From: Desulfatiglandales bacterium
Lineage (GTDB): Bacteria; Desulfobacterota; DSM-4660; Desulfatiglandales; Desulfatiglandaceae
NCBI GenBank assembly: GCA_963662465.1
Contig: OY759599.1
Location: forward strand, 3,264,001 to 3,328,000
Reading direction: 5' to 3'
Length of the DNA stretch: 64,000 nt
The stretch's first letter is position 1. Every line of letters begins with the position of its first letter. Positions 41,655 to 62,325 of this stretch are shown here, in pieces. A model generated the notes under the pieces. The model saw only the letters and a program-made list of their open reading frames with translations, did no database searches and was not told the origin of the DNA. The position numbers were made by a program, and so were the translations under genes.

Positions 41655-41712
41655 CAACGGCACTGAGAACAACGCGCAAAAAAACGCACGCCTCGCATGC
41701 CGGGCGTTAGCT
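41649..41712 (+). repeat. attC site (short, 64 bp)
   Basis: AGCTAAC ... CGGCACTGAG / CTCGCATGCCG ... GTTAGCT. Confidence 0.8.
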
Positions 41713-41743
41713 ACCATGAATTACTTATCGTAGAAGGGAAGCA

Positions 41744-42073
41744 ATGGGTTCGTCAAAGCTAGAATTTATTATAGAAATGGCAATCATGTTAGCAATAATC
41801 TTTGTCATTTTCTTCTTGGACAAGCCACCACCTATTTTTCGTTTTATCGCTAGAGGCCTGGTTTCACTAATATGTTGGATCATAGCTTTCTATGCTACCT
41901 TTATTCATGAGGATTATAGTGATTGGGATTTTGAAATTTCTGATTATATTTGGCTTAACAAGATATTTGAATATACAGTAAAGTTTCTTTCGATGATTTT
42001 CTGGACTATTATCCTCTATCTTTTTGCAGTTTACGGCATTGGAGGACAAGGAGGTCCTTGGGAAAATGTATGA
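41744..42073 (+). CDS. cassette small membrane protein
   Basis: Three hydrophobic segments, immediately after attC. Confidence 0.7.
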   Translation: MGSSKLEFIIEMAIMLAIIFVIFFLDKPPPIFRFIARGLVSLICWIIAFYATFIHEDYSDWDFEISDYIWLNKIFEYTVKFLSMIFWTIILYLFAVYGIGGQGGPWENV

Positions 42074-42103
42074 TTCTCTCATGCTTTTATTATTTTAGGG
42101 ATC

Positions 42104-42292
42104 GGGGTCGCCCACAAAAATAGCTAAGAATTCCATTGGTTGAGTCATAAAACACAGTGTTTTTGACCCTTATAAGCGCCTTTTGGCCCCCAAAAACATG
42201 CTTTTAAGGAATCGTAGTAGTATCGAAGCAGTCAGGCGTACACTTGAGGCGTACCTGAGATGACAGGCGTAGTCCACTTTACGGGTTCATAA
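42104..42292 (+). repeat. ~185-bp non-coding repeat, copy 2
   Basis: Aligns with 32845-33029. Confidence 0.8.
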
Positions 42293-42348
42293 CACGATTT
42301 TTGGCGTGAAATGATAAGCCCGGCACTACGAAATCAACGCATTGGAAC

Positions 42349-42434
42349 CGCGAACCAAGCGCTGCACCAGACGCCTGATAATTGGGCGGTCCCAGCGGGG
42401 GCCGGAGGAGGCGCTGGTGAGCTTAACGTTCGAG
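42349..42434 (+). repeat. attC site (86-bp family)
   Basis: CGCGAAC ... GTTCGAG. Confidence 0.9.
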
Positions 42435-43399
42435 TTGCGACACGAAGTCGCTTTAAATATATGTTTTCACAGAAGAATCGTGGAAACCCGGTGTTCCTCC
42501 ACCGGCATCCTAGGGAGGCATGCTGCCGTTGCGCTGATGACGGGGTGTGAAGCCCTCCCGACAATGTACCGAGGACCTTTGAAGTTGGAAAGTCGGGACA
42601 GAAAGCGTGAGTGGACTGTTCCTCTGGAAGCCTCATCCGGATTAGGGCTGGGATTGACTGATATGGTCAGTATATTCAAACACCTGCAGTATCGTAAACA
42701 GCAACAAGCCAAAGAGGCCGATAGGCTTGGACCAAACGGTGTGCGGCCAGGTCGGGAGTCTCGAACGTACGCCCGGCGCGGATGTTGTGCCGCCGGTATA
42801 GGGGGTGGACCTAAGTCAGTTAACAGTATTTATTGCGGAACGTGGTAAGCTCGTAACATCGCCATAAAGTTTTGTGGCAAGCCAACCGTGAGGCAGGCCG
42901 CTGGTGTTGCGGGTGCAAAACGCCTTACCAAGCCAATGCCCTCCTGAATGGGTGGGATACGGAGTTATCTCCGGCCCGAAAGGGAGCTGAATTTTGGCGG
43001 GTGCTCATGCGTGAGATAATTTGAAGAACCTTCTGATGGGAGAATAGCAAATGAGGGGTCTTCGTGACTGGTACACTTCCACAACAAGCTCCAAACTGGC
43101 AACTCATTAACTGGGATGTCGTCAAGAGTAACGTGAAAAGGCTTCAAATGCGTATTGCGCAGGCGGTTAAGGCGCAAAGATGGAAAAAGTGAAGGCTCTA
43201 CAGTGGCTTCTCTCCCATTCCTTCTCTGCGAAGTTATTGGCAAAAAAGGCCAAGAATGTTCGCCTTGCTTAGCCAATAACAACCGCCGGACTCTTCTGAT
43301 GAGAAAGGGTCTTACTGAGGGCTTGAGCCGTATGCTGGGAAACTCGCGTCTACGGTTCTGAGGAGGGAAGGAGGCCGGATGGCCTCCGACCTATCCGGT
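42435..43399 (+). mobile_element. group II intron 2, ORF-less (internally deleted RT)
   Basis: 5' TTGCG; frameshifted RT N-terminal remnant NWQLINWDVVKSNVKRLQMRIAQAVK/KVKALQWLLSHSF (~43051-43250); domain V 43325-43358; domain VI ending CTATCCGGT. Confidence 0.88.
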
Positions 43400-43732
43400 C
43401 GGTGGGGCATCAGTAGCATCCTCAAAAGGAAAGGTGAAAGGCAGTATGTAACGGCAAGCAATTGGAACCACTATAGTTCTTCGCAAATGAAGTGAAACAA
43501 AGAATTCTTAGCAACCACATGATATTGAAATGAAATTGAAATAAAAACAAATCCAAAACTGGTGTCATTCCATTCGCGAGGCACTACAATAAGGAAGAAG
43601 AGTTATTTTGAAACTGCACTGTAAAAAGTCCGTTCGACCCTATAGCATTCTGCCGGATGGGCCAAATAAGGACTGAATCTGCAAAGGAAATATGACGTCA
43701 TTTACGTGGGAAGAAAATATGAACTTAGCGCG

Positions 43733-44077
43733 CTAACGCGCGGGCTTTCTACCTTGCGCATATTTCATTGTTTCTCGATTGCACTGAGGGCAACCGAGAA
43801 TGGGCATAAAGCCTTCCACATTCCTTCCTTCATATTCTGCTTTTGCAATCTCGACGTCTATTATCGCTTCATTTACCTTCATTTCATGCCGGCAATGGGA
43901 ACAACGGTAAGGATATTCCTCCGGAGGAGGGCCGAACGGGAAGTCCTCGCCTTCCACCCCCGCTGTCATTTTGTCCTGTAACCGTGCCGTACCTGTCGTT
44001 TTTGATGTTTTCATATTCGTCATATAAAACTCCATATTTTGGATGCCATATCTTCCATAGCACCATTTCATGGCCAC
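43733..44077 (-). CDS. small zinc-ribbon protein downstream of the IS91-like transposase
   Basis: CSHC and CPQC pairs; start uncertain, overlaps the transposase 3' end. Confidence 0.55.
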   Translation of the reverse strand: MAMKWCYGRYGIQNMEFYMTNMKTSKTTGTARLQDKMTAGVEGEDFPFGPPPEEYPYRCSHCRHEMKVNEAIIDVEIAKAEYEGRNVEGFMPILGCPQCNRETMKYAQGRKPAR

Positions 44078-45332
44078 AATAACGACACAAAAAAGGATCT
44101 TGAGAGCTGATCTCCTTATAACGTTCTCGATATCTTTTCGCTTTTACGACTTGATACGTTCCTTTAATCCCACGCCCCAAAGCCTTCATCCCTTTCCGTA
44201 TTACTTCCGACCATTTCTTAAAAGTTTTCGTAGCCTGTAGCCCATAATAACGAACCCGCTGGAACCCTTTGGGCATTATGTGTTGAACCATTCGACCGAT
44301 AAAAACATCCACTTCCACGGTTTCAACCTTCCTGGATTTTGTCATGTGATCATTGTACCAATAGGTAACATATTGGCCATCATAACTGATTATCCGTCTC
44401 AGAGCTATCGGAGGAGATGCAACATATTTCGCCAAATATCGCGCCAGACCCCCACATGTCTCAGGAACATTACCCTTGCTCACATTGGCTACCAAACCTT
44501 TAGGGTATTTTTTCCACAGCTCATCAATAAGTTTATCGACCGCACTGCTGTTAAAATGGGACTTGAGCATTCTGAATAGATGATACTGCCATTTCTTATG
44601 TATAATCTCATACTTGAAGAACCTTAAATCAAACCAACCGCACAGATCTTCATTTATCCCACCGCTTGTCATGATGATATGCAAATGCGGATTATAATGA
44701 CCGGATCGACCATGCGTTTGAACAACGACGATCGTTCCTATTTTCAGTTTCCGCCGAAGAACCGTTCCGACAACATCCTCCAAACATTCGTACCCGCATC
44801 TCATAAAAGCCGATAACAAACGTCCATCATTTCGAGCCTTATAAAAAACGATTCTCAGTTGCTCGGGAATTGTCAAAACAATGTGACGGTAATTCATGCC
44901 CCCATGAAGCACCCACGGTGAATTTGTTCTAACGCTAATCCATTGATTTGTTTGAATTGATGTGTCCTTCATAAGGTTTTGATATCAAAGGTTTACAAAT
45001 AGAACAAATTTGCCCTGATGAAGCACCCTACTCACTTGACTGACAAAATCGTCAACATATTTCTTGGCGCAGGATAAACAAAAACAGCTCTTGCAACTAA
45101 AACCTATCCGGCGAACATCACCACCGCAATAAACACACCGGTGCTCGCTATATCCGGCGCTTTCCTTGCCGCAACCAAGCATTTTCTGAACCGGATCTTC
45201 ATATTGCGAATTATCATACCCTGGATGATGCTCTTTGAATGATTCCCAATGATCAATAAAAATCGTCCGGAAAGTCTCCTTATCAATTTTTTGGTTTGAT
45301 GGCATATGCATAATGTGCTTTTTTTGACACAT
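43884..45332 (-). pseudogene. IS91-family transposase interrupted by a 104-bp MITE
   Basis: FSCKSCFCLSC, HIVLTIP, YNPHLH, YLAKY, RYYG; both ORF pieces are in the same frame. Confidence 0.88.
44914..45017. mobile_element. 104-bp MITE
   Basis: TIRs CACGGTGAATTTGTTCTA / CAGGGCAAATTTGTTCTA (15/18); 10-bp duplication ATGAAGCACC (44904-44913, 45018-45027). Confidence 0.85.
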
Positions 45333-45376
45333 TTAATGCCATCACTGCAACAACTATTTGATATGCCAAATCAAAA

Positions 45377-45649
45377 ATGGAAATTCCTATGCTTTTGAAT
45401 TACTTTGCAAGCCTTTCATTCTGGGATTGCTATAGAAAACTGCCGAGAGATATTCAAGAACTGGCAGATGAGAATTTCAAACTGCTAAAACGAAACCCGA
45501 GACATCCATCCTTACATTTAAAGAAGGTTGGCAGGTATTGGTCTGCAAGAGTCGGGAGGAGATATCGAACTGTGGCTGTTGAAGTTGAGGAGGGCTTGGT
45601 CTGGTTTTGGATTGGTATACATGCCGAATATGATAAGCTAATTCAGTAA
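45377..45649 (+). CDS. RelE/ParE-superfamily toxin-like protein, no adjacent antitoxin seen
   Basis: FW.CY..LP..IQ..A...F.LL..NP.HPSL..KKVG..WS.RV...YR...WFWIG.H.EYD pattern. Confidence 0.75.
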   Translation: MEIPMLLNYFASLSFWDCYRKLPRDIQELADENFKLLKRNPRHPSLHLKKVGRYWSARVGRRYRTVAVEVEEGLVWFWIGIHAEYDKLIQ

Positions 45650-45754
45650 TTACCTAACCAAACGCGTCACGAAAGAGCAAAATAAGGCGTTATCAATGTC
45701 GAACGGTGCTGAACTGTTTCCATAAAATTCCGTACACTTGAGACCTTCAGAAGC

Positions 45755-45840
45755 GGCGAACCAAACGCTGCACCAGACGCCTGATACTTCGGCGGTTTCG
45801 GCGGGGGCCGGAGGAGGCGCTGGTGACCTTAACGTTGTGC
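45755..45840 (+). repeat. attC site (86-bp family)
   Basis: GGCGAAC ... GTTGTGC. Confidence 0.9.
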
Positions 45841-45979
45841 GTGCGTTGCTCCGAGCGAATAAGGACTGCCGGTAAAGATAATACAATTGAAAAAGGGAAG
45901 CATGATATGAAACACAATTTACCCCCCCCCCCCCGAAAATCCAGATCGGGAAAAGGATGCGGAAACGCGCCTTGCCCGA

Positions 45980-46759
45980 ATGCTCAGAAAACGGATTCGG
46001 ATCAATGAAGCGGGGTTGCACGGTGCGGTTTTCAAGATCGCGGATAGCATTGAAGAACTGGCGGGGTCATATAGGCTGGTTCATGACGCCTATGTGCATA
46101 AGGGGTATATGGACCCGGCACCTTCAGGGATGCGGGTGACCGAATTCACATTGAGCCCGCGCACCACCACCTTTATCGGAAGGCAAAACGGCGACATCAT
46201 CTCCACCATATCCCTTTTCGAGGATTCCAAAGCAGGACTGGCCATGGATGGCATTTACCAGGAGGAGCTGGATAAATTGAGAGAACAGGGGCGTAAGATC
46301 GCTGAGGTGGGGAGCCTGGCTGCTTCACCCGCCAACTGGAACGGAAGGCCTGATGCCACGTTTCACATGTTTAAGATCATGCTCAATTACGCCATGGACT
46401 ATCTCAATCTGGACGATCTGGTGATTGCCGTCAATCCCAGCCAGAAGCATTTTTATGTTTGGGCGCTGCTTTTTGACGAGATCGGCGGGCTGAAATCCTA
46501 TGAATACGTCAAATCCAACCCGGCTGTGGCCATGCGGATGCCTCTGGAAAAGTGTCAATACCGATACCTTGAAGCATACCAAGACCAAACCCTTAATAAA
46601 AATCTTCACCACTTTCTGTTTAAAATACAAAGCCCCCTGGTCCAACTGCCCGATGAAAAGAAACCGCACAGGGTGATGACCCCGCAAACAGCGGAATGGT
46701 TTTGTAAACGCTATGGCGTTGGCCATGAGCCGGAAAAGGCGGTTCAAAATGAACCATAA
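45980..46759 (+). CDS. N-acyl amino acid synthase (FeeM-like GNAT); may start at 45907 across a C13 tract
   Basis: YRLVHDAY..KGY, TISL..DS..GL.MD, IAEVGSLA, DLVIAVNP...FY...LLF, PAVA motifs. Confidence 0.75.
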   Translation: MLRKRIRINEAGLHGAVFKIADSIEELAGSYRLVHDAYVHKGYMDPAPSGMRVTEFTLSPRTTTFIGRQNGDIISTISLFEDSKAGLAMDGIYQEELDKLREQGRKIAEVGSLAASPANWNGRPDATFHMFKIMLNYAMDYLNLDDLVIAVNPSQKHFYVWALLFDEIGGLKSYEYVKSNPAVAMRMPLEKCQYRYLEAYQDQTLNKNLHHFLFKIQSPLVQLPDEKKPHRVMTPQTAEWFCKRYGVGHEPEKAVQNEP

Positions 46760-48260
46760 CACCGTCCAGCTTTTCATGGACGTCCTAGGGACTTCAAATG
46801 TCGTGTTGGACCCCAAGCGGCTGTCTGAAGCCCTGCGCAACACCCTCGGCGTAAGCCGAGAGGTTCCGGGCATCCTGTACCCGTCTTCCGTGTCCCAGGT
46901 GGCAGAGATTGTTGCCATCGCCAATGAACACAAAATACCCCTTTATCCCATCAGCACCGGGCGTAACATGGGCTATGGAGACAAGGCCCCGGTTTTGGAC
47001 GGGAATGTCATTGTGGATTTGAGCAAGATGGATGGTATCCGTGATTTCGACCGGACCCTGGGTAATATCACCCTGGAACCCGGCGTCACCCAGACGGCGC
47101 TTCACGCCTTCCTTACGGAAAACAATGCCCCTTTCTGGATGGACGCGACCGGGTCCGGTTATGATTCCAGTATTGTGGGCAATGCGTTGGACGGCGGTTT
47201 CGGCCACACCCCCAAAGGGAACAAACGGGAGAGCATCTTTGATCTTGAAATCGTCTGCGGAAACGGAACAATACTCAAAACCGGCGACCTTCAAGGCTTC
47301 GGACCGGGCCTGAGGGGGCTCTTTGTTCAATCCAATTTCGGAATCGTCACATCCCTTAAAACCGAGCTGATGCCCATCCCCCAACGATACGAATCCTTTG
47401 TGCTCAAGGTGCCGGAAGACCGGCAGTTGGAGGCATTGATCGATACCGTTCGAATTCTCAGGCAAAACGGGGCACTCACGTCGCTGGTACACATCGCCAA
47501 CGCCACCCGCTCCCTTATGACCACCCATGACATACCCAAGGGGTACGGGAACCGGCTCGTAACCTGTGAGGATGCCATGCGGATCATGTCTTCGCCCATC
47601 CTGAAGGTCGGGTACTGGACGGCCATCGGAGGGCTTTATGGAGCCGTACGGGAAGTTGGCGCAAAAAAGAAGGTCTTGAAGGAAGCCGTCAACGGGATAG
47701 GGAAAATCGCTTTTTTCAGCGATGACAAAATCCGGAAAATAAGTCGGTTGAAGTTTCTGGGTCGGGGCATGGCCAAAAGCATTGATTCCCTGACCTATAT
47801 CCACGGCCTGGGAAAAGGCGTGCCCAACGACATGCAGGTGCGAAACATCAAATGGCGGGTGCAAAACCCCGAGGACATGGGGCTCCTGTTTTTTGCCCCC
47901 AATGTGCCGGCCGAAAGCAAAGCCGTCCGGGACATGGTCAGAACGGCCAAAAGCCTTTACCGAAAACACGGATTCGAGTTTGCCATCACCATCACCTATA
48001 TTCGGCCGGAACAGGTGGCGGGACTCATGAACATCGGATTTGATCAAAGAGACCATACCGAAAGAGCAAGGGCCTTTGAGCTTTACAACAGCCTGAAAGA
48101 GACTTTTTCCGGAAAAGGCATTCATCCCTACCGCCATCATGTCGCGGCCATGGCGGACATTCGGTACGAGCCAGGCAAACGCGAAATGCTGACGGCCCTG
48201 AAAAAAGCCTTTGATCCCAACAACATCATTGCGCCGGGAAGGTACGGTATAGAAAGCTGA
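46713..48260 (+). CDS. FAD-binding oxidoreductase (VAO/p-cresol methylhydroxylase family)
   Basis: PLYPISTGRNMGYG, LEPGVTQ, QSNFGIVT, PYR, DPNNIIAPGRYGI; real start probably the ATG overlapping the upstream gene end. Confidence 0.88.
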   Translation: MALAMSRKRRFKMNHNTVQLFMDVLGTSNVVLDPKRLSEALRNTLGVSREVPGILYPSSVSQVAEIVAIANEHKIPLYPISTGRNMGYGDKAPVLDGNVIVDLSKMDGIRDFDRTLGNITLEPGVTQTALHAFLTENNAPFWMDATGSGYDSSIVGNALDGGFGHTPKGNKRESIFDLEIVCGNGTILKTGDLQGFGPGLRGLFVQSNFGIVTSLKTELMPIPQRYESFVLKVPEDRQLEALIDTVRILRQNGALTSLVHIANATRSLMTTHDIPKGYGNRLVTCEDAMRIMSSPILKVGYWTAIGGLYGAVREVGAKKKVLKEAVNGIGKIAFFSDDKIRKISRLKFLGRGMAKSIDSLTYIHGLGKGVPNDMQVRNIKWRVQNPEDMGLLFFAPNVPAESKAVRDMVRTAKSLYRKHGFEFAITITYIRPEQVAGLMNIGFDQRDHTERARAFELYNSLKETFSGKGIHPYRHHVAAMADIRYEPGKREMLTALKKAFDPNNIIAPGRYGIES

Positions 48261-48293
48261 ACCGTAGGAGATGTTTTGCAGCGTTAACAGGAG

Positions 48294-49078
48294 ATGCTCT
48301 ATATGAAGAAGCTGTTTATGAAACTCCCCGACCCCATCAAGGGTCCCATCCTGCGTAAACGCGTGTGGATCGATGAAAGCAAACTGGACAGGACCACCTT
48401 CAAGATCGCGGATACCGTCGAGGAGCTGGAAAGTGCCTACCGCCTGGTGCATGATGTGTATGTGAAGGAGGGGTACATGGACCCCCACCCTTCCAAAATG
48501 CGCATCACAAAATACAACCTGCTTTCTAAATCCACCACGTTTGTGGGGAAGCACGACGGTCGCGTGGTACTCACCATGTCGCTGATTCCGGATTCGGAAC
48601 ACGGGCTCCCCATGGATTCCCTGTTCAAGAGCGAACTGGATCAAATGCGGAATCGGGGGCGATATATCGCCGAGGTGGGAAATCTGGCCAGTGATCCGAA
48701 TTTCAGAAACCGTAACCAGAATGTGCCCACAGGTATCTGAATATTCATGATCTGGTGATCGCCATCAACCCCAGACATAAATGGTTTTACAGGAATATTC
48801 TCATGTTCAAAAAGATTTCCGGGAAACGGAATTATGATTATGTCAAAGGAGCTCCGGCTGTAGCGATGACTTTGGATCTTGTAACTGCCGAGAATCGATA
48901 TAAACAGACTTATGGAAATTCTACAGGCTACCCCCCCCCCCCCCCGAAACCTTCATCATTTCTTTTTCATGGAAAAAAGCCTTTCAATCCATCTGCCCAG
49001 GGAAACAAAACCCCACATTACCATGAAACCGGAAATCGTCTCCCATTTCAAAAAACATATTTCACAAAACCGCTCGTG
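48294..49078 (+). pseudogene. second FeeM-like acyltransferase, disrupted (internal stop/frame break and C15 frameshift)
   Basis: Similar to 45980-46759 in three frame segments: ...IAEVGNLA; DLVIAINP...PAVAM; RNLHHFFF... Confidence 0.75.
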
Positions 49079-49104
49079 ACCCCGGCGGGCGCTGGAGAAT
49101 ACCA

Positions 49105-49845
49105 ATGGAACGTATCCTGGAACCTGAAATCATGGCGGATAAAGGTGAGGCCGAGGCTTACGACCAGCTAGTTTCGGACCCGCAGGGGGAAATGCTGGAT
49201 ACCTGCTTTGCCCTTTCCGTTTTGGATGCGGCGCCTGCTCACGGCGTCATTCTGGATTTGGGCGTGGGCACTGCCAGAATCCCCATAAACATTCGGCGGT
49301 TTTCCGACCGGCATACCATCTGTGCTTTGGATATCTCCCAGAGCATGCTGGAAATCGCCGCCAAAAATATTGAGACTGGAGAGGCATTGGATATTCACTG
49401 TGTCCGCGCCGACATGAAACGTCTCCCCTTTCCGGATGCCTCCGTCGATATGGTCGTCAGTCATGTGGCCATGCATCATCTTCCGGAGCCCACCCGAATG
49501 CTCAAAGAGGCGGCAAGGGTTCTCAAGCATGAAGGGGCCTTTCTTATCAGAGACCTCAAAAGGCCGCCTAACCGCATAGCCCTTGCTCTGTATGTTCAGA
49601 TTTTCGGGGGGGGGGGGTACAATACGATTCAGAAAAAACTCTACCGGGATTCCCTCATGGCTGGTTTTACCGTACACGAACTGAGGCGAATGGCCGAAGA
49701 TGCGGGCCTCGAAAGATTTACCGTAAAGAAATACTTCATCACCCATGTGGGGATCGAAAGAAAGGCACCGGGAGCCAAACCGGGACCAAAGTTTGAGAAA
49801 AAGGGCGGCAAAGAAAAGTTAATGCAGCGACTTTACAGACGCTAA
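49105..49845 (+). CDS. class I SAM-dependent methyltransferase
   Basis: ILDLGVGTA, LDIS.SML, DMKRLPFPDASVD, MHHLPEP, RVLK..G; in-frame G12 tract. Confidence 0.9.
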   Translation: MERILEPEIMADKGEAEAYDQLVSDPQGEMLDTCFALSVLDAAPAHGVILDLGVGTARIPINIRRFSDRHTICALDISQSMLEIAAKNIETGEALDIHCVRADMKRLPFPDASVDMVVSHVAMHHLPEPTRMLKEAARVLKHEGAFLIRDLKRPPNRIALALYVQIFGGGGYNTIQKKLYRDSLMAGFTVHELRRMAEDAGLERFTVKKYFITHVGIERKAPGAKPGPKFEKKGGKEKLMQRLYRR

Positions 49846-49926
49846 CGCGCAGCATGCCGGGAAGATGGTCAAAAAAACGTTTGCGGAGATGTTGACCGAC
49901 AATAACATATTTGTTATATTCTAAAT

Positions 49927-50262
49927 ATGAAATGGAACATTAAATATTTCAGCTCAAAACTGGAAGAGGAAATTCTTGCCCTCCCGGATGGATTGCTGGC
50001 GCGGTACTTACGATTAACCGATTTGATGGTTGAGTTTGGTCCAAACCTGGGTCCCCCTCATACAAAGTCATTTGGAAATGCTCTTTTTGAATTACGGATC
50101 AAAAGCAAGGAAGGGATCGCCCGCGTTTTCTTCTGCACAAAAACCGGCAGGAAAATCATCATGCTGCATGTTTTCATAAAGAAAACCCAAAAGACGCCAA
50201 AAAAAGAGATAAACATCGCAAGGACCCGAATGAATGAGGTAACGCAAGATGGATCATTCTGA
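49927..50262 (+). CDS. RelE/HigB-like (phage Gp49-type) toxin
   Basis: GPNLGPPHTK...LFELR....IARVFF...MLHVFIKKTQKTP. Confidence 0.88.
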   Translation: MKWNIKYFSSKLEEEILALPDGLLARYLRLTDLMVEFGPNLGPPHTKSFGNALFELRIKSKEGIARVFFCTKTGRKIIMLHVFIKKTQKTPKKEINIARTRMNEVTQDGSF

Positions 50263-50551
50263 ATTGAAGGAAAAGGCGTTAAAGAGAAAAAGTGTTAAAG
50301 CTGCCTATGAGGCCCTCGAAACTGAATTCTCACTGCTCCGTGAACTGCTGAAAGCACGCCAGAATGCGGGCCTGACCCAGGCGGAGATTGCGGAGCGTAT
50401 GGGAACGAAAGCCCCCGCCGTTACAAGACTCGAATCGTCATTAAGCAGCGGAAAGCATTCGCCTTCTATTGCAACCCTTAAGAAGTATGCACAGGCATTG
50501 GGGTGCCGTCTGGAAATAAAGGTTGTCGCCGATAATAACCCATCGCCTTGA
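50249..50551 (+). CDS. HTH (HigA/Xre-type) antitoxin
   Basis: ARQNAGLTQAEIAERMGT...RLES...SPSIATLKKYA.ALG; overlaps the toxin. Confidence 0.88.
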   Translation: MDHSELKEKALKRKSVKAAYEALETEFSLLRELLKARQNAGLTQAEIAERMGTKAPAVTRLESSLSSGKHSPSIATLKKYAQALGCRLEIKVVADNNPSP

Positions 50552-50597
50552 TATCTGTAGAAATAATCACAACGATATCAAATAATTACCTTGAATC

Positions 50598-50683
50598 GCA
50601 CAACCAAACGCTGCACCGGACCCCTAGACGCAACGGGGTAATGGGGACGTTGGGTGCAGGGGCCGGTGAGCTTGTCGTTGGAT
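50598..50683 (+). repeat. attC site
   Basis: GCACAAC (exact complement of GTTGTGC at 45834) ... GTTGGA. Confidence 0.9.
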
Positions 50684-51935
50684 TGCGACACGATGTCGCA
50701 TAGTTTGAGTGTATTCATGTAGTTACATGTAGTACCCGGTATGTTCCTACCGGACCCTACGCAGGCATGCTGCCGTTGCGCTGATGACGGGGTGTGAAGC
50801 CCTGCGGACAACGTACCGAATCGGGTTCAAATGGCGACAGGAGAACCCCTCCGGGAATCCTCCCGGTTAAGGGCTAGGGTCGGATGATATGGTGAAGGTA
50901 TCTGAATGTCTTTAAGCGTCGATTACAAGCGAAGGGCCTACGAGGATTAATAGGTCTTATGCCGCTGCCCAGTGTCAGCGGATGTGGTCAGGTTGCAGGT
51001 CTGCTAACGGCCTGCACGGAACTGTTGTACCACCGGCGTAGAGGGCGCACCTAAGTCATCCACAGGATCAACTATGTGGAACGTGGAAACCCGTTCCCGT
51101 CGCCCCCTTTGGGGGCAGGCTAACGTAAGGCATGCTGTTGGCGGGCCGGAGTAGGAGGCTGAAAAAAGCGAATGCCGGGCTGTAATGGTCCGGATACCGG
51201 GTGAAACATTCCCGGCTCCGTAAGGAGGCAGACGTTCAGCGCGGTGCCCGATTACGTGAACACCGGAGGAATCAGATGAAAGCGGGGAAAGCAGCCAGTG
51301 AAACGGGCGAATGACGGCCCTTGAGGCTGGTGCGCCCCGTATGCCTTTGGCTACTCTGACAACCGGCCTGTAACGTGAAGTGGATGCAAATCCGCGGGAA
51401 TCCCCACCAGGGAAACCTTTTCGGGGGCTTGAGCCACGTGAGGTGAAAGCCTCATGCGTGGTTCTGAGGGTAATAGCGGCATAATACACACCTCCGTACG
51501 TTATTGAAAATTAAAGACTTGTTGTTTTGAGTTTCTTGAAAGCGGGCTCTTTGGAAACCCGGAATGAGCTGCCTTTTTTATCACTTCAGATTCAAGGTCC
51601 TTTTTTGAAATGATCCATGGAGCACCGGAACATACTCGCTTGGCGGGTAGAATCTCATGTTGTATAAGTCTCCAAACTTTGGTGCTGCCAATACCCAGCC
51701 TTTCGCTTGCTTCAGCTACCGTATATTCTTCTCGTCGCTGCCTCTCTCCTTCATGATATACAGGGATATTATGCCTATTTCGAAATGAACGCAACCTTAC
51801 CGGATTCCAGGTATATCCCTTTGTAGTCTTTGTACCCACACGGTTGAGAAAGGCCACGATGTGTTTATCAGGCATAATTCTAGCCAAATCGGCTAAAGCG
51901 TCATTATACGGTTGGATCCATCAGCAGCTTTAGCC

Positions 51936-53798
51936 TCACTGCAATGTGCGAGGAGCACGGCTACTGGCTGCTTTCTTGATGCGATGATTCATCTGATCCG
52001 TCCTAACCAAACGTCTATCTGCTGTCGATAGAGATGCTGTAGAAAGCTGAAGCTCTTTTTTAAGATTCACAATTTCTTGGGAAGGCAGCCATTTATTCTT
52101 CCTATTCCGGTTTTCCATATCTAATTGCGCGAATGCAAGAGGAAGCTGATCGATCGATCCACAAACTATATTGACGTAATCGGCGTGTTCCAGATTATAT
52201 GCCAGAGCCGCTTCTGCCGGTAGATGTTCCAGATCCTGACCAAGATTTTTCCGTCCACTGCGCCGTCGTTCTCCATGCTTCATTGTTCCAAAGAAGTTTT
52301 CGAGCAGTTCGTTGGTTCGACTCATAAGCCGTATGCCGCCGCCTGTTCTTTCCGGCAAACATATGCTGTGCCCCCAAAGACTATCACCATGCGTGTCAAT
52401 ATGTTTGATTATAATATCAATAGCTTCCCGAATATCTTTTCCCGGGCCTCGTTTTGGCCGGCGATCTTTAAGGGCAGTCGTCCATGTTTCAAACTGATAC
52501 CGCATCTCGTTAAGGTCTTCTATTGATTCCTTATCCGGGAGTTCTTTTGCCAACCGCAATTGATTTCGCAGCTCATCGAATAAAGCAGCACGGCGGTGCA
52601 ACTGTTTGACAGTTTGACGAAAGGGCACTTCACAAGAAACCTTCGAAGCGATCCTCCTAAGCCGACGAATCATGCGCACAACATGCTTATCATTCGGAGG
52701 AATGCGAAGAAATGCATCTATTGCTCGCAGAGCAACCATACACCTGTTGAAAAAACTCAAATACGGTCTGTCAAAAGGAAAATCCAGGCCTGAAAGATCT
52801 GCCTTATAGTCGATTATCCACTGTGCTATGTTTCGTACAACGGCAAGGCCATCTCGTCCCGGTGGGAGACGATAGTCATCCCTCTCTTGCCAATCCAGAA
52901 CCGCCTGCCGTGTTTCATTGATCTCAAAGCCTATCTCTCGCCCGATCTCACGGACTAAGTTATTGATTTTAGGTCGTACTTTTGTACGCCGGAAATGGTC
53001 CCGCAAAGCGGAATGGTCAGGTTTTATAAGGTCTTTACCAATGTCGGCAAGAAAGTGTTGATGGCAAGCTAACACGGGTATATCCAATTGCATCTCAGAT
53101 ACGAGTTCGTCGATGGCCGGCGATACCGCGCGTCCCAAGTCGCGCATGGCTCCGCAAGGCGGGCCGAATCGACTGACCGTATCCCGCATGCAGGGTAACA
53201 AAAGATCGGCTCGTTCAGTTGAAATTTTCCAGGCGCCAAGCACCCATTTTCTCCAACCAGCCATCACAACAAATAGGGTCCCTCGACCGGCTTCTCCAGT
53301 GGCATCCACTTGCATCGGCCAACCCCCATCCGCCTCCAGGACCCCTTTCAATTGCTCAGCCCGCACGTGATGAAGTCTGAGCAAGTATTCCAAAAAGTAT
53401 CGTGTCAGATTGCTAACCTCACCGCAAGACAATTTGATGCCGTGCCTTTCCTTTAATTCTGCTTTTATTTCCTCTCTCTGTTTATAGCCGAGCAGCCTAT
53501 TGAGACCCACATAAACCATTACGTCATAACCGACAATGCCGTTTGGCATAATGGTCCGAACGACCGATTCTGCTCTCTTGGTAAACAATGTCCCATCATC
53601 ATTACGGCACCGCTCCGAACATACATGTACCGTTTCCCTAACATTAAACGTACCATGCTCGATGGTCCGTCCTTCATGCACAAACGTTTTTTGTACACGC
53701 ATCGGTCCATTGCAGAGTTCACATACCCCAACCTCATCCTTAGCAGATACAACGATATCCGCTAACCCGACCACTTGTTTAAAACAACTATCATTCAA
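51936..53798 (-). CDS. putative DDE transposase (IS OrfB)
   Basis: CELC, MQVDATGE, AMRDLG, CHQHF, RTNELLENFF motifs inside the TIRs. Confidence 0.8.
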   Translation of the reverse strand: MNDSCFKQVVGLADIVVSAKDEVGVCELCNGPMRVQKTFVHEGRTIEHGTFNVRETVHVCSERCRNDDGTLFTKRAESVVRTIMPNGIVGYDVMVYVGLNRLLGYKQREEIKAELKERHGIKLSCGEVSNLTRYFLEYLLRLHHVRAEQLKGVLEADGGWPMQVDATGEAGRGTLFVVMAGWRKWVLGAWKISTERADLLLPCMRDTVSRFGPPCGAMRDLGRAVSPAIDELVSEMQLDIPVLACHQHFLADIGKDLIKPDHSALRDHFRRTKVRPKINNLVREIGREIGFEINETRQAVLDWQERDDYRLPPGRDGLAVVRNIAQWIIDYKADLSGLDFPFDRPYLSFFNRCMVALRAIDAFLRIPPNDKHVVRMIRRLRRIASKVSCEVPFRQTVKQLHRRAALFDELRNQLRLAKELPDKESIEDLNEMRYQFETWTTALKDRRPKRGPGKDIREAIDIIIKHIDTHGDSLWGHSICLPERTGGGIRLMSRTNELLENFFGTMKHGERRRSGRKNLGQDLEHLPAEAALAYNLEHADYVNIVCGSIDQLPLAFAQLDMENRNRKNKWLPSQEIVNLKKELQLSTASLSTADRRLVRTDQMNHRIKKAASSRAPRTLQ

Positions 53799-53833
53799 AC
53801 GATGCGCCTGATGCCTTAGGTAGACCAGCGTTT

Positions 53834-54526
53834 TCAGCGGAATCTTGACGTTTTTTTTTCTGCTTGAATGCCATGTTCTGAAAAAATCCGGTTCACCTGA
53901 TCGACAGTGACGGCCAATCCCCGAACGGCGAGGCGGGTTGCTATTTCAGATTGAGATACAATAACTTGGCCCGCCTTCAGCGCTTCCACAAGAACAGCAA
54001 TGGTCGTTTCCATTGGGACCGGCCCGACAATTTGAACCCCTTCTTGTATATGTACGCGACGCGCCGCTATTTGCACTTTTCCTTTATCCGGATCTCCATT
54101 GGTATATAAGGAAAGCCCTTCGGATCGGTGCCGACTTATCTGCTGGGATTGAACCAGCCCATGAAGCGTGTTGTGCAACGTGTTGGGAATCCGAATCTTC
54201 AACAAATGCAACAGCTCTTTCGGTGTCATTCCGGCATTCGATAAATGCACAATTTCCACCACAGTCGCTTTTAGCGTGCCGGCCTTTGAAAAGCCGATTC
54301 CCCGATAAAACCACAAACCCCAAGAATCAAACGAAGGAATATCCTCAAGGGTGTAGTAACGACCGGCATCCGTAAAGCTTGTCAAGTATCCGATAAGTTT
54401 AAGCCTCCGGAATACACTCATCCGAGAACTTGTTTTCAGTACATGGAAGAGCTGATTGAGATCTGCGATGTATTTCTTCCTAAACCATTTATGTAAAGCC
54501 TTTTTGGAGTCTTCAGGAGATAACAT
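53834..54526 (-). CDS. IS OrfA, probable DNA-binding part; A9 slippery site at its end
   Basis: Inside the TIRs; ends GCA GAA AAA AAA ACG and overlaps the open -1 frame of OrfB. Confidence 0.75.
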   Translation of the reverse strand: MLSPEDSKKALHKWFRKKYIADLNQLFHVLKTSSRMSVFRRLKLIGYLTSFTDAGRYYTLEDIPSFDSWGLWFYRGIGFSKAGTLKATVVEIVHLSNAGMTPKELLHLLKIRIPNTLHNTLHGLVQSQQISRHRSEGLSLYTNGDPDKGKVQIAARRVHIQEGVQIVGPVPMETTIAVLVEALKAGQVIVSQSEIATRLAVRGLAVTVDQVNRIFSEHGIQAEKKTSRFR

Positions 54527-56610
54527 GTGACCTCTGATACATTTATTTGTTTTCTGTGGCTATTTCCAAATAAATGTATCAAAATGCCAATTGCTTGTCA
54601 ATCCTCCAATTCAATAAAATCAAGTGGTTACTGAAATATAAGGTTTGTTTCCCAGCGTTTGTGTGGTACAATTATGAAAAAAATATCAAAGATAATACCG
54701 TTAATTCAATGGCTTATTGAATCCAACCGTATCCTGACGCTGTAGCAAATCGGATATTATCTTTTTTGTATCAACATCGGTTTTCAATGGGTAACTGGAA
54801 GACTTATTCTTCAGTACCTCCAATTCCGTATGCTCACCCCCTTCCCAGTGAATGATTAATTTGATCTTTTGCTCTTCCAAATAAACAACGATCTCTTTGA
54901 TAACCGTCCGGATTATACGCTTCTTTAAATCCAAAGAGCAACACGGATTATTCCATACACGAGGTAAATCTTGTGACAGATCTCTGATCTCGGTCTCTTC
55001 CTCAGGGGAAAGCGAAGGGGTGTTCGACCCCATAGCGGTAATCTCATTCTCCAACCTTGCTACCTTAACAAGAGCGTCATTCCAATCCTTCTCCAATGTA
55101 GATGCTACCAAACGATTATCAGGGTCCACTGCATTGTATTGACGTTTTGCCCGTAAAGCTTCATAACGCGCTTGTTCCAACTCCAGTTCCCGTTGCCGTT
55201 TCACTGAATCCGATTCATGGTTGATTTTCTTTATCGCCTCTAAAGAAGCTTCTAATCCTATCGGTGATAATACTTTCAAAAGAAAATCCGTAACAGCCCG
55301 GTCAACACGGAATCCACCAAATGATATACACGCCTTTCCTGTCTCGTTACCTCGTTTGCGGCTACACTCATAACGTTTATGAGTTCCATTACGGCCTTGG
55401 TATCGTACAATTAACTTTCTGCCGCAATGACCGCATCTTAACAAACCTCCAAGCAATGCCTTTCCTCCGCGAACAGCTCCTCTCACCACCGGCCTTTTCT
55501 TATTTGTATTTTGAGTTAGTATCTCCATGTTATACTGGTACTCTTCCCATGTGATGTAACCTTCATGGTGATCCAATATTAAAACGTCCCAATCCTTTTG
55601 TTCCTTACGAATACCCTTCCTCAGTCGCTTGCGCCCATTTTCAAAAGTTACCTCTGTTTTAGTCCGGCCATAGACGTAGGCGCCGGCGTAAATTGGGTTG
55701 TTCACTATATGCGACAAGGTATGAGCAGACGGTAGTTTCCACTCTATCCTACGTTCCCCTTTACCGCTGGAAACAACAGCAATCTCAATCTGTTCATCTA
55801 AAAACCAATGATACACCCGACGAAGAGTACCATATTCCTTGAATTTCGTGAATACCAAATCAATGACTTCTTGAATTCGTTTGTCAGGATTCTTTTTCAG
55901 CTTATTATCCCTAGTCTTTATATAGGCTGCCGGTACAGTAAGATATAATTCTCCCCGCTTCGCTTTTTGTTGTATTGCCGCCTGAGAACGCTCCTTTAAT
56001 AGGCTCAATTCCATTGCACTCATTTCTCCCTTTAAGCCCAGGAGCAAACGATCATTTGACACGTTTAGGTCATAAACAGCTCCTTGATCTACAAGAACCG
56101 TTTTTTTAAGTGCACAGATCTCAAGCAACGTATGCCACTCTCGACCGTTGCGGGCCAACCTCGATGATTCAATCGAGAAAATACCCCCTATTCTTCCTTC
56201 ACACACAGATGAAAGAAGATTCTGGAATCCTTTTCTGTCAACGCATCCCGATGCAGTTATTCCCAAATCACTATCTATCATCCATATGTTTTTCTCGTTC
56301 CATCCTAATTCTTTTGCCCTTTCTACCAAGCCATATTGTAAAAGTTGGCTTTCACGATGCTGTAGAACTTGGCCCGGTGTTGACTGACGGATATATATAC
56401 ATGCTTCCCGACTAATATGTTCAGCATTGATTTTATTGCTCATGCTCATTTCCACCTTTCTTTTCTCGAAATGTCAACCGAAAATTGACCTCTTGCGACA
56501 ACCGAATTTTGCCCCCACATGAGTAATTGTAACCTGCGACGCGGTCATAGAAGGCTCCGGTGGCTCCTGCCGAAATATCCATTAAAAGAGCGACCATAAC
56601 CGCACCTTAG

Positions 56611-56817
56611 TCAGCTTCCGACCAGATAATCATCTGGTAAGTCGAGAAAACCCTTTTTCGTCGCTAATTCGAGTTCAATCAAATACCCTATCTCGCCTTT
56701 CATTTTGATCTGTGAAACCATCCACTTCGGTAACCGAATCGTGACGGGGATACGCCTCAGATGTTCAGGACTCCTTTTTCGACCAGCGCCTTTTCGACTC
56801 CCACCTCTCATTTTCAT
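56611..56817 (-). CDS. small putative DNA-binding protein (copy 1)
   Basis: RGGSRKGAGRK then VTIRLP; identical to 61366-61572. Confidence 0.65.
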   Translation of the reverse strand: MKMRGGSRKGAGRKRSPEHLRRIPVTIRLPKWMVSQIKMKGEIGYLIELELATKKGFLDLPDDYLVGS

Positions 56818-57618
56818 CGCTCCTTTTCACCTTCAAATTCGTCCAATATTTTTGAATACCGCGTACGTTTTTCAATTAAACACCTATTTCTATCGGAAAA
56901 TAAGGTATTTATGATTTATAGTTACGATTTTTCTGAGTCGGATTAAGCTGCTTGCTTCAACAACTCCAGTCTCTTGACTGCTTCCAATATCAGACCGCGA
57001 TTTTACGTTAGTGAAACTACTTCTCTTTTCTATTTCTGTTACCCTCAGAATTTTGCCAGAAACCTGACAGAAGCTCTGCAAGGAAATCAATCAATCTATT
57101 TCGTGTTTCTATTGGAATTTCGATCGGTGATGGTAAATAATCCCAAAGCCGAAGTTGATGATATTTTTGTTTCGTCATCTTTCCTCCTTGTTTTCGAATT
57201 GACTTCATCAGGAGGAAACGGTATTTTTCTATTCACTATTAAGCAATATAAATTCTTAAGCGCCCTGATTTCGATAGCGGGTTTTGAGCCGAGGGATATC
57301 TTTTCATACTTTGGATTGGTCATCCACGCAGGTATCAATTCATGGCGACCATCAGGTTTCTTTGTTACAAAACAAGTTTCTCCACGATGGTTTCTGGTAC
57401 CTACCACATAAATTTCTTCACCGGTTCTTGGGTGAAATGGGTAATATACCCGAGTTATAAACTGGTTTTGATGGGCATTATATAGTGGTTCTGAGGGGGC
57501 TCGGGGATGGCAACATCCCCCGGCTACCCGGCCCCCCCCTCAAAATCCAACGATTTACCTTGACAAACAGTCTTACTGTTGTACAATTGTCCAAAAAGCA
57601 TTTAGATGAAGGTAAAAT

Positions 57619-58011
57619 ATGGACATTGTAATTGACACATCAGCACTGATTGCGGTGATCGTTGGTGAACCACAACGTACCAAAATAATAGAAATAACGT
57701 CAGGAAATACACTGATTGGTCCAGGATCTATTCCGTGGGAAATTGGTAACGCATTTTCGGCTATGTTCAAGCGAAAAAGGCTGTCACTTGAGGAAGCGAA
57801 AAAAGGGTTTTCAATCTTCGATAGCATCCCCATTCGATACATTGAGACTGATTTTATAAGTGTTCTAAACATATCAAAACGAGCAGCTATGTATGCATAC
57901 GATGCCTATTTTTTGGATTGTGCATCAAGGCAAAAAGCTCCTCTATTAACATTGGATCGAAGGTTAAAAGCCTCTGCCCAAGATTTTAAAATTGATACCA
58001 TGGAGGTTTAA
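57619..58011 (+). CDS. PIN-domain (VapC-like) toxin
   Basis: IVIDTSALIA, WEIGNA, AYDAYFL, LLTLD; TTGACA...TACAAT promoter upstream (~57560-57588). Confidence 0.9.
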   Translation: MDIVIDTSALIAVIVGEPQRTKIIEITSGNTLIGPGSIPWEIGNAFSAMFKRKRLSLEEAKKGFSIFDSIPIRYIETDFISVLNISKRAAMYAYDAYFLDCASRQKAPLLTLDRRLKASAQDFKIDTMEV

Positions 58012-58012
58012 A

Positions 58013-58231
58013 ATGCAAGTTTATACATATTCAGAAGCTCGTCAAAAGCTTGCTACGGTTCTTGAGCAGGCTGAAAATACAGGTAAAGTGATAATTCGAA
58101 GGAAAGATGGGAGAACGTTCTCCTTGGTTCCGGAAAAAGCTGCTACATCACCACTAAATGTTCCAACAATAAAAGCAAATATAACAACACAAGAAATAGT
58201 TGACATCATTCGCGAAGGAAGGGAAAGGTAG
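58013..58231 (+). CDS. Phd/YefM-family antitoxin
   Basis: YTYSEARQKLATVLEQA...VIIRRKDG; stop codon overlaps the attC. Confidence 0.88.
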   Translation: MQVYTYSEARQKLATVLEQAENTGKVIIRRKDGRTFSLVPEKAATSPLNVPTIKANITTQEIVDIIREGRER

Positions 58232-58313
58232 AACCAAACGCTGCACCAGACGCCTGATACTTGGGCGGTTCCAGCGGGGGCCGGCAGAGGCGCTGGTGAG
58301 CTAGACGTTAGCT
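58228..58313 (+). repeat. attC site (86-bp family)
   Basis: GTAGAAC ... GTTAGC. Confidence 0.9.
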
Positions 58314-59115
58314 TGCGACACGATGTCGCATAGTTTGAGTGTATTCATGTAGTTACATGTAGCACCCGGTATGTTCCTACCGGACCCTACGCAGGCATGC
58401 TGCCGTTGCGCTGATGACGGGGTGTGAAGCCCTGCGGACAACGTACCGAATCGGGTTCAAATGGCGACAGGAGAACCCCTCCGGGAATCCTCCCCGGTTA
58501 AGGGCTAGGGTCGGATGATATGGTGAAGGTATCTGAATGTCTTTAAGCGTCGATTACAAGCGAAGAGCCTACGAGGATTAATAGGTCTTATGCCGCTGCC
58601 CAGTGTCAGCGGATGTGGTCAGGTTGCAGGTCTGCTAACGGCCTGCACGGAACTGTTGTACCACCGGCGTAGAGGGCGCACCTAAGTCATCCACAGGATC
58701 AACTATGTGGAACGTGGAAACCCGGTCCCGTCGCCCCTTTTGGGGCAGGCTAACCGCAAGGCATGCTGTTGGCGGGCCGGAGTAGGAGGCTGAAAAAAGC
58801 GAATGCCGGGCTGTAATGGTCCGGATACCGGGTGAAACATTCCCGGCTCCGTAAGGAGGCAGACGTTCAGCGCGGTGCCCGATCACGTGAACACCGGAGG
58901 AATCAGATGAAAGCGGGGAAAGCAAATGACGGCCCTTGAGGCTGGTGCGCCCCGTGCGCCTTTGGCTATTCTGACAGCTGGCCTGTAACGTGAAGTGGAT
59001 GCAAATCTGCGGGAATCCCCACCAGGGAAACCTTTTCGGGGGCTTGAGCCACGTGAGGTGAAAGTCTCATGCGTGGTTCTGAGGGTAATAGCGGCATAAT
59101 ACACACCTCCGTACG

Positions 59116-61209: not shown

Positions 61210-61365
61210 CTTTCTTTTCTCGAAATGTCAACCGAAAATTGACCTCTTGCGACAACCGAATTTTGACCCCCATATGAGTAATTGTAAGCTGCGACGAAGT
61301 CATAGAAGGCTCCGGTGGCTCCTGCCGAAATATCCATTAAAAGAGCGACCATAACCGCACCTTAG

Positions 61366-61572: not shown

Positions 61573-61771
61573 CGCTCCTTTTCACCTTCAAATTCGTCCA
61601 ATATTTTTGAATACCGTGTACGTTTTTCAGTTAAACACCTATTTCTATCGGAAAATAAGCTATTTATGATTTATCGTTACGATTTTTCTGAGTCGGATTA
61701 AGCTGCTTGCTTCAACAACTCCAGTCTCTTGACTGCTTCCAATATCAGACCGCGATTTTACGTTAGTGAAA

Positions 61772-62252: not shown

Positions 62253-62325
62253 GGCTCGGGGATGGCAACATCCCCCGGCTACCCGGCGTATTCTTTTAAG
62301 TGTGTCGAGAGATGGAGGAAAAACA

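Follow-up and report, generated by a model that had tools for sequence, protein, structure and literature searches.

Group II introns without a reverse transcriptase gene retain its start-codon hairpin at attC sites of a Desulfatiglandales integron

A 64,000-nucleotide stretch of the genome of a Desulfatiglandales bacterium (G000, 8.16 Mb, one contig, C1), here called the window (C1:3264001-3328000), contains the start of a chromosomal integron, in whose cassette array stand four group II introns. Intron 1 encodes a reverse transcriptase (RT). Introns 2, 3 and 4 are derivatives, in two families, that lack the RT open reading frame (ORF). We consider it likely that this integron was colonised by group IIB introns that home to attC sites, and that the ORF-less introns spread as satellites by means of a retained hairpin around the former start codon and the RT of full-length relatives. 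Comparison of the copies gives good support to mobilisation in trans after ORF loss, and the enzyme was probably that of the full-length relatives.

Results

Four introns in the window

Rfam models of group II domains 1 to 4 (D1-D4, RF02012) and of D5-D6 (RF00029) each matched the window four times, always on the + strand (124, 93.1, 78.1 and 75.5 bits; 56, 52.6, 45.8 and 45.3 bits). Each of the four introns passed the gathering threshold of both models; in introns 3 and 4, what is matched as D6 is not the real D6. An RT ORF (33788-35320, with RVT_N, RVT_1 and GIIM but no endonuclease domain) was found in intron 1 alone by Rfam and Pfam, in agreement with an earlier note on this DNA, which had described introns 2-4 as lacking an RT. 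Its further description of these introns as ~0.8-1 kb long with all terminal domains does not hold for introns 3 and 4, where D6 and the 3' end lie 6.0 and 3.15 kb further on. The parts of the four introns, including exon-binding sites 1 and 2 (EBS1, EBS2) and hairpins resembling domain IVa (DIVa), are as follows.

33167-35393, + strand: intron 1, autonomous, 2227 nt, 5' GUGCG...UCGAC 3'
33432-33437, + strand: intron 1, candidate EBS2, ACAAGC
33492-33497, + strand: intron 1, EBS1, GCGAAC
33775-33823, + strand: intron 1, DIVa-like hairpin
42435-43399, + strand: intron 2, ORF-less, 965 nt, 5' UUGCG...CCGGU 3'
42760-42765, + strand: intron 2, EBS1, CUCGAA
43037-43081, + strand: intron 2, hairpin
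~43051-43240, + strand: intron 2, decayed RT remnant
50683-51470, + strand: intron 3, 5' segment (D1-D5), ORF-less
51003-51008, + strand: intron 3, EBS1, GCUAAC
51282-51340, + strand: intron 3, hairpin, including 16 nt discussed below
57485-57532, + strand: intron 3, 3' segment with the second copy of a 13-nt repeat, the real D6 (57498-57532) and the 3' end
58313-59085, + strand: intron 4, 5' segment (D1-D5), ORF-less
58556-58561, + strand: intron 4, candidate EBS2
58634-58639, + strand: intron 4, EBS1, GCUAAC
58913-58955, + strand: intron 4, hairpin, 16 nt deleted
62240-62287, + strand: intron 4, 3' segment with the repeat copy, the real D6 (62253-62287) and the 3' end ...CCCGGC

Intron 2 is 66% identical to intron 1 from 290 nt before the intron to 197 nt into the RT ORF, and the decayed RT N-terminus reported for it earlier is indeed present, as ~65 codons with an RVT_N-like remnant. 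The ATG frame ends after 19 codons, and the RVT_N-like remnant, read in a different frame, after 28. A conserved non-coding stretch of ~190 nt precedes the attC sites of introns 1 and 2 (32880-33070 and 42139-42350), is 81% identical over ~150 nt, and recurs at two other attC sites of the genome. We rejected an old duplication of introns 1 and 2 together with this flank: flank identity is 81%, intron identity ~66%, and the flank occurs at the two further sites.

Copies in the genome and a single ORF loss

RF02012 matched 28 places in the genome. The intron 1 family comprises 11 RT-type copies, five with an intact 510-aa ORF (RVT_N, RVT_1, GIIM) and six in which the ORF is split by a 313-nt inverted-repeat element, and there is a single ORF-less intron 1-like copy at C1:441432. 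The 313-nt element (e.g. C1 3346616-3346928) has inverted repeats built on the motif TTATGCAAAG and occurs in either orientation. Another RT-encoding intron, P (G000:C1:450963-448698, 2266 nt), is present once; its RT (494 aa, RVT_N + RVT_1 + GIIM) is 54% identical to that of intron 1. The intron 2 family has three copies. The intron 3/4 family, for which a genome-wide survey had been proposed earlier as a check, has 12 copies with 5' ends: two are whole, five carry an inserted element (E', described below), one lacks most of D5, and four are 5' pieces of 201-392 nt. The two whole copies, each 825 nt and free of E' (C1:3333982-3334806 and 3353258-3354082), both lie outside the window.

All seven complete intron 3/4-family copies have the same run of gaps relative to P and intron 1, and both of their flanks differ. 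The common gap run indicates that the ORF was lost once, before the family spread. The earlier claim that these introns moved after ORF loss is supported by one deletion junction at differently flanked sites in seven of seven complete copies. That note had proposed the RT of intron 1 "or a relative" as the partner; for introns 3 and 4 the relative, P, is the best match and intron 1 is not. Its term "MITE-like" (miniature inverted-repeat transposable elements) serves only as an analogy, as we found neither terminal inverted repeats nor target-site duplications.

Tandem copies and differing 3' flanks fixed the exact intron ends. Introns stand head to tail without a spacer elsewhere in the genome (e.g. 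C1:3329531-3331756, 3331757-3333981 and 3333982-3334806). All ten listed 3' ends of intron 1 type read ...UCGAC and are followed by ten different sequences; all nine of the intron 3/4 and P types read ...CCCGGC and are followed by nine different sequences. The intron 3/4 family thus runs from UUGCG to CCCGGC. The consensus ends GUGYG...AY occur in intron 1 only (GUGCG...AC), as introns 2-4 begin with UUGCG and end in GU or GC. The spacer-free arrays, of two or three introns each (C1:3329531-3334806 and 441432-439912), fit repeated insertion at one attC arm that was left intact upstream of the resident intron.

In 26 of the 28 copies (10 of 12 clusters) the sense strand lies on the leading-strand template, with the origin taken at the cumulative GC-skew minimum (~5.5 Mb; dnaA match at 5.77 Mb). 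As members of one array are not independent of each other, we take this distribution as a hint only. In another genome, two loci (L023, L024) hold ~860-nt ORF-less derivatives of an intron 1-like intron at non-attC sites, with the first 42 RT codons remaining.

A start-codon hairpin retained by ORF-less introns

The motif GGGGAAAGCAAATGACGG...CTGGTGC begins at 33778 in intron 1 and at 58915 in intron 4, so intron 4 does keep the start of the intron 1 ORF, as had been stated. Intron 3 has 16 nt more inside the motif, as also stated, there as an insertion. The same 16 nt are present in P and in six of the seven complete ORF-less copies and are absent from intron 4, which makes them ancestral and intron 4 the carrier of a deletion; this loss causes the hairpin of intron 4 to resemble that of intron 1. 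The hairpin, ~45-60 nt long, encloses a ribosome-binding site and the start codon. Introns 1, 4 and the C1:441432 copy fold alike, with a 6-bp outer stem, an AAA loop, a GCA/UGC pairing, an AAUGA loop containing the start codon and then an inner helix; introns 2 and 3 adopt a related form.

Multiple observations bear on the retention of this hairpin. First, an ORF-less copy shares 80-100% identity with P in its initial 420 nt and 45-70% in the 180 nt that follow; identity then reaches 85-93% in ~60 nt at the start codon, drops to 30-45% and recovers in D5-D6. The hairpin itself, at 85-93%, stands against 45-60% on its 5' side and 30-45% on its 3' side. Second, the hairpin is kept in four of four independent ORF-less lineages (the intron 3/4 family, the intron 2 family, C1:441432 and L023/L024), and two of these lose homology to the RT-encoding relative no more than ~10 nt past it. 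Third, in an alignment of 11 hairpin sequences (A3), 89.5% of cells pair and eight of 13 pairs change on both sides. Among 500 shuffles, none reached the observed pairing percentage or covariation score, and one and four reached the two pair-count measures; given the relatedness of the sequences, the number of shuffles should not be read as a probability. Slid controls paired at 38-47%.

The aligned set consisted of five ORF-less sequences from the window and genome, one ORF-less and one partly deleted sequence from another genome, and four with an RT. The 16-nt segment puts two of its rows (I3w and P) out of register, and their outer-stem cells are therefore not homologous columns. Outside the alignment stand L015, from a Desulfamplus metagenome-assembled genome (RT 50% identical), whose start region is differently built, and L014, L016, L017, L019 and L024, which are near-duplicates of included rows or of L015. 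In the hairpin of intron 2, two changes break pairs that are present in its sister copy.

These data allow two other accounts of the start region to be weighed. One holds that it is a neutral leftover in copies that are inert or merely splice, with the island of identity produced by recombination with P. The mosaic identity profile, the broken state of most copies and the decayed hairpin of intron 2 would suit this account, but it leaves unexplained why four of four independent deletions spare the hairpin, two of them ending within ~10 nt, why stem pairs change on both sides in eight of 13 cases, and why one common deletion is found at at least seven different sites; we judge it improbable. 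The other account, that the region was kept for translation, for example to provide ribosome traffic for downstream cassettes by way of a short ORF and its ribosome-binding site, draws on the ATG-initiated 20-codon frame with a common TAA end that can be read in introns 3 and 4. Differences within that frame change amino acids (R-A vs R-M, I/T and A/T, by eye), RNA pairing rather than a peptide is conserved, and the frame differs in the other ORF-less lineages, all of which makes this account very unlikely.

In Ll.LtrB, DIVa is the high-affinity LtrA site. By analogy, we infer that the start-codon hairpin is the equivalent of DIVa and would serve as the anchor for the maturase.

Pairing with attC and intron class

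All four introns lie on the strand of the cassette ORFs (sense), each immediately 3' of an attC-like site and after its R' GTTNNN. An EBS1 loop ~320 nt into each intron contains a 6-mer complementary to the last 6 nt of the intron's own 5' exon, or intron-binding site 1 (IBS1).

33083-33166, + strand: attC-like site 5' of intron 1 (repeat family, nhmmer, bottom-strand fold, EBS1 pairing); last 6 nt GTTCGC are IBS1, 6/6 Watson-Crick with EBS1 GCGAAC
42353-42434, + strand: attC-like site 5' of intron 2 (repeat, nhmmer, bottom-strand fold, pairing); last 6 nt TTCGAG are IBS1, 6/6 Watson-Crick with CUCGAA
50602-50682, + strand: attC-like site 5' of intron 3 (repeat, nhmmer, pairing); last 6 nt GTTGGA, 5/6 with GCUAAC
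58232-58312, + strand: attC-like site 5' of intron 4 (repeat, nhmmer, bottom-strand fold, pairing); last 6 nt GTTAGC are IBS1, 6/6 Watson-Crick with GCUAAC

Among 22 copies genome-wide in which a script found the EBS1 loop, pairing with G-U allowed was 6/6 in nine, 5/6 in six and 4 or fewer in seven, the poorly pairing copies being mostly at tandem or non-attC sites. Three further intron 1-type copies were read by eye, and three truncated copies do not have the region. Upstream of EBS1, the sequence ACAAGC can be read in all three families (33432, 42704, 58556); it is probably EBS2, as it matches GCTTGT of the attC right arm one base before IBS1. From the complementarity of EBS1 and this candidate EBS2, the predicted homing site is the attC right arm, with GCTTGT, one spacer base, and the R' core GTTNNN as IBS1. 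The integrase crossover, which we take to be at G/TT of attC, would place intron insertion 5 nt past it. A relative in another genome (L018, RT 85% identical) also follows a site ending ...GGTGAGCTTGTCGTTCGG.

The RT of intron 1 matched PDB 6me0_C ("maturase reverse transcriptase") with an E value of 2.6e-170 over residues 7-485, compared with 1.4e-42 for LtrA and 5.8e-34 to 1.6e-30 for group IIC RTs. We take 6me0 to be the ribonucleoprotein of the T. elongatus group IIB intron TeI4h, and 6me0_C to be the TeI4h intron-encoded protein (IEP). The part of intron 1 outside the ORF is ~690 nt (2227 minus 1533). This RT affinity and the size of the non-coding RNA point to a IIB-like lineage, with an RT that has no endonuclease (En) domain, and not to IIC-attC introns. 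Group IIC-attC identity was rejected on RT affinity, strand and insertion point: we found neither antisense, bottom-strand insertion at TTGT/T in R'' nor a class C RT with a small ribozyme.

An element inserted between D5 and D6 of introns 3 and 4

In a self-comparison of the window, 50658-51895 plus 54746-57532 repeats 58288-62287 at 97-99% identity. High identity between introns 3 and 4 runs from the intron 5' end to ...GGTTCTGAGGGGGCTCGGGG...GGCTACCCGGC, a sequence made up of the 3' half of a D5 and a D6 resembling that of intron 1, and the flanks differ on both sides. The full extents of introns 3 and 4 are therefore 50683-57532 and 58313-62287, each split between D5 and D6. The RF00029 matches ending at 51499 and 59114 join the real D5 to the end of the inserted element, E', and score ~45 bits, against 57 and 67.5 bits for D5-D6 of uninterrupted copies.

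59086-62239, - strand: E' in intron 4, ~3.15 kb, with 13-nt direct repeats at 59073-59085 and 62240-62252
59116-61209, - strand: intact large serine recombinase of E', 697 aa, Pfam Resolvase + Recombinase + Zn_ribbon_recom + HTH_17
51471-57484, - strand: E' in intron 3, between D5 and D6, recombinase gene split by an insertion sequence
51501-51887 (C-terminal) and 54701-56455 (N-terminal), - strand: recombinase pieces of E' in intron 3
51893-54745: insertion sequence inside E' of intron 3, 2853 bp, bounded by imperfect terminal inverted repeats; 8-bp target duplication

The 13-nt repeat flanking E' is the sequence of the D5 3' strand. E' occurs seven times, twice in the window and at G000:C1 4984147, 5887275, 6375478, 6748386 and 6823248; five hosts are of the intron 3/4 family, one is of intron 2 type, and one copy lies beside a third D5/D6 type. 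Copies of E' differ by 0.19-1.14% and their five intron 3/4-type hosts by 1.4-4.0%; distances among the E' copies do not agree with those among the hosts. For intron 3 and C1:5886487, E' differs by 0.19% and the intron by 2.43%; for C1:6379417 and 6752326 the values are 0.22% and 3.54%. E' in the intron 2-type host is 0.19% from E' in one intron 3/4-type host. This disagreement indicates that E' entered the introns separately.

Separate entry bears on the explanations for the long sequence that introns 3 and 4 have in common. If the copies had been made by DNA-level duplication, whether segmental or by integrase-driven cassette shuffling, with introns 3 and 4 as one block, shared flanks would be expected. 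Such flanks, which the earlier note had named as evidence against its reading, seemed at first to exist: that note had missed 3.2 kb shared at 97-99% past the 3' ends it gave, and an intron just inside the downstream cassette could be carried along by the integrase. The shared block is, however, a separate seven-copy element whose distances do not track those of its host introns and which entered each separately, so that this common "flank" is no sign of DNA duplication. Identity begins and ends exactly at the real intron ends with both flanks different, EBS1 pairs with each copy's own 5' exon, and intron 1 and the copy at C1:4410075 are 96.7% identical as introns and only 75% in the upstream flank. 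Duplication is thus largely refuted, and we give it very little weight. Unequal crossing-over as the origin of introns 3 and 4 was also rejected, as no PIN/Phd cassette repeat follows copy 2.

Alternatively, a 4-kb composite of ORF-less intron plus E' might have retrohomed as a unit, making introns 3 and 4 copies of one composite. Both are bounded by proper intron ends, and their divergence is similar in the intron (1.61%) and in E' (1.14%). In the two pairs given above, the genealogy of E' conflicts with that of the intron, the E' of an intron 2-type host is nearly identical to one in an intron 3/4-type host, and E' puts 3 kb between D5 and D6, which should cripple use of the 3' splice site; a composite is accordingly unlikely. 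We return to independent spread of the ORF-less introns, followed by entry of E', after which introns 3 and 4 are probably inactive now.

In a sample of 201 genomes of the order, 15 (counting G000) contain homologues of the E' recombinase at E 1e-50 or better. Among 16 homologue loci in other genomes, many of them on short contigs, two have a group II D1-D4 match nearby, and in one case (L032, same genus, other genome) a 35%-identical relative has a similar end motif and lies within the RT gene of an intron, antisense to it. These two cases hint that E' belongs to an element family living in group II introns. Among the literature titles and abstracts listed, with subscription journals outside coverage, none describes serine-recombinase elements inside group II introns.

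The insertion sequence within E' of intron 3 is present in the genome as two whole copies and one split copy. Its ORFs (620 aa and 230 aa) had no Pfam or NCBIfam match; in a protein atlas the nearest surroundings of the 620-aa ORF are MULE/Transposase_mut clusters (score 0.98-0.99), which we treat as a lead only.

RNA-derived contigs

Contigs over 32500-52499 were taken from two metatranscriptome runs and two other holders, of nine runs listed. The RNA-run contigs cover all three intron families, most deeply the intron 3/4 type, with DNA carry-over possible. One of them joins D5 directly to the real D6, and a form joining 33915 to 43321 also appears.

The integron

Downstream of an integrase gene, and on the opposite strand, the introns share their array with + strand ORFs, mostly of low GC content, separated by a repeat of ~86 nt that begins beyond an IS91-family gene.

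23690-24706, - strand: intI, integron integrase gene, Pfam Phage_integrase + SAM_4, NCBIfam TIGR02249 at 444 bits (cut-off 265), divergent from the cassette array
24866-26065: intact IS91-family (Y2 transposase) gene next to intI
43884-45332: IS91-family (Y2 transposase) gene split into two ORFs, just 3' of intron 2

Eight attC-like repeats begin in the window at 29410, 31311, 33083, 38098, 42353, 45759, 50602 and 58232. They fold as imperfect palindromes with paired AAC/GTT ends around an unpaired 5-nt spacer, and their single-base bulges are on the arm adjoining the cassette ORF, which gives the layout of attC with + as the top strand. An IntI-type integrase and adjacent attC-bounded cassettes together identify the locus as an integron; its attI site and cassette promoter (Pc) were not located. 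Genome-wide, nhmmer found 54 attC-like sites, and an intron 5' end directly follows 18 of them.

A long cassette-like block at 45980-50551 contains two FeeM-type N-acyl amino acid synthase genes, one intact and the other broken into 48294-48740 and 48755-49171. The block further encodes a Gp49/HTH toxin-antitoxin pair, a methyltransferase and an FAD-linked oxidase. Intron 1 is followed by a 3' exon that opens with a perfect tandem duplication of a 31-nt unit (35394-35455).

Discussion

A model for satellite spread

The introns would home to the right arm of attC, on the top strand, by pairing through EBS1 and probably EBS2. In the intron 3/4 family, one ORF deletion would have been followed by spread to at least 12 sites with the hairpin kept. 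The RT of a full-length relative may bind this hairpin, splice the ORF-less RNA and carry it into new attC sites. P is the best candidate source of that RT, having a nearly identical hairpin, and the intron 1-type RT, with five intact copies, is the second. Reverse splicing into attC right arms would presumably be primed from replication, as the RT has no endonuclease domain. The serine-recombinase element, which appears to target the D5 3' strand, would then have entered many copies independently, introns 3 and 4 among them.

Several facts weigh against this model. Divergence of 1.4-5.6% among intron 3/4-family copies indicates that the spread was not recent. Only two of the 12 look structurally whole, and in one of these the hairpin carries two substitutions. 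Introns 3 and 4 are disrupted as they stand, and the hairpin of intron 2 has two disruptive changes. P exists as a single copy, and the mosaic identity to P might reflect recombination instead of selection on the hairpin. The anchor role of the hairpin is taken from other introns. The ORF-less introns start with UUGCG rather than GUGYG, and no exon-exon joint is among the joints listed from the metatranscriptome contigs, which as contigs cannot show splicing.

A wider and more speculative view, which we hold as a possibility only, is that the integron carries a nest of mobile elements at three levels: attC-homing IIB introns, ORF-less satellites, and hyperparasitic serine-recombinase elements. 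Introns in sense orientation could be spliced from cassette transcripts, and each intron, as the first element of the next cassette, might be moved both by RT and by integrase. The satellites would parasitise RTs through the retained hairpin. The serine-recombinase elements would specialise in conserved group II sequences, inactivating introns and perhaps reactivating them by excision.

The spread of ORF-less introns has been studied well in one case, a cyanobacterium, and this genome offers a second and richer natural experiment. Independent ORF losses that spare one covarying hairpin could pin down the minimal cis element of a satellite intron, and two RTs as diverged as these (54% identical) provide material for work on specificity. 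Sense-orientation homing of IIB introns to attC, a link so far known from one metagenomic contig, bears on the transcription and rearrangement of integron arrays. Should it be confirmed that a serine-recombinase element targets introns, mobile elements would be seen to interact in a new way.

Comparison with known systems

The hairpin described here resembles Ll.LtrB DIVa in its place at the 5' edge of domain IV and in enclosing the start codon with its Shine-Dalgarno sequence; it differs in belonging to another intron class and in being known from sequence and fold. DIVa is a critical IEP-binding region in IIA introns (PMC2882425).

Group IIC-attC introns such as S.ma.I2 are inserted antisense into the bottom strand of attC at TTGT/T in R'', with the attC hairpin replacing IBS2 (PMC3001079; PMC7923331). 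The introns studied here likewise are group II introns specialised on attC, with an RT that has no En domain. By contrast, they lie on the top strand in sense orientation after R' GTTNNN, their RT is IIB-type, and the ribozyme part is ~690 nt.

A closer match in position is the IIB1/CL1 intron UHB.I2 from a soda-lake metagenome, which lies directly 3' of an attC and has the ends 5'-UUGCG..GU-3' (PMC7923331). Like our introns, it is IIB-type, immediately follows attC and has the orientation of the cassettes, and it ends exactly as intron 2 does. Compared by description only, UHB.I2 encodes an RT and is known as one copy, on a short contig, with no explanation given for its targeting, whereas here one genome has 28 copies, pairing of EBS1 with the R' core, and ORF-less derivatives.

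Bacterial ORF-less introns are rare and nearly always co-reside with related IEP-encoding introns (PMC4424553). T. elongatus has 17 ORF-less TeI3 introns, all with the same deletion in DIVb; DIVa and remnants of the ORF persist in them, and related IEPs mobilise them (PMC2882425). Three marks of such TeI3-like introns were found here, namely one common ORF deletion, a kept DIVa and ORF start, and a related intact RT in the genome. The likeness extends to one ancestral deletion sparing N-terminal remnants and DIVa, spread to many sites with good EBS/IBS pairing, and RT-encoding relatives in the same genome; the RT here is closest to 6me0_C. The differences are the attC right-arm target, the UUGCG 5' end, several independent ORF-less lineages, the further disruption of most copies by a serine-recombinase element, and trans-mobilisation that here is deduced from sequence; in addition, the TeI4h IEP is listed there with an En domain (PMC2882425), which our RT does not have. 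Among the literature titles and abstracts listed, again with subscription journals outside coverage, none describes ORF-less introns at attC. The introns studied here thus closely parallel Thermosynechococcus TeI3, with a lifestyle that is known but a lineage and setting that are new, and what they add is an explanation of attC homing by base pairing, repeated loss of the ORF that spares the hairpin, and a recombinase element that targets introns.

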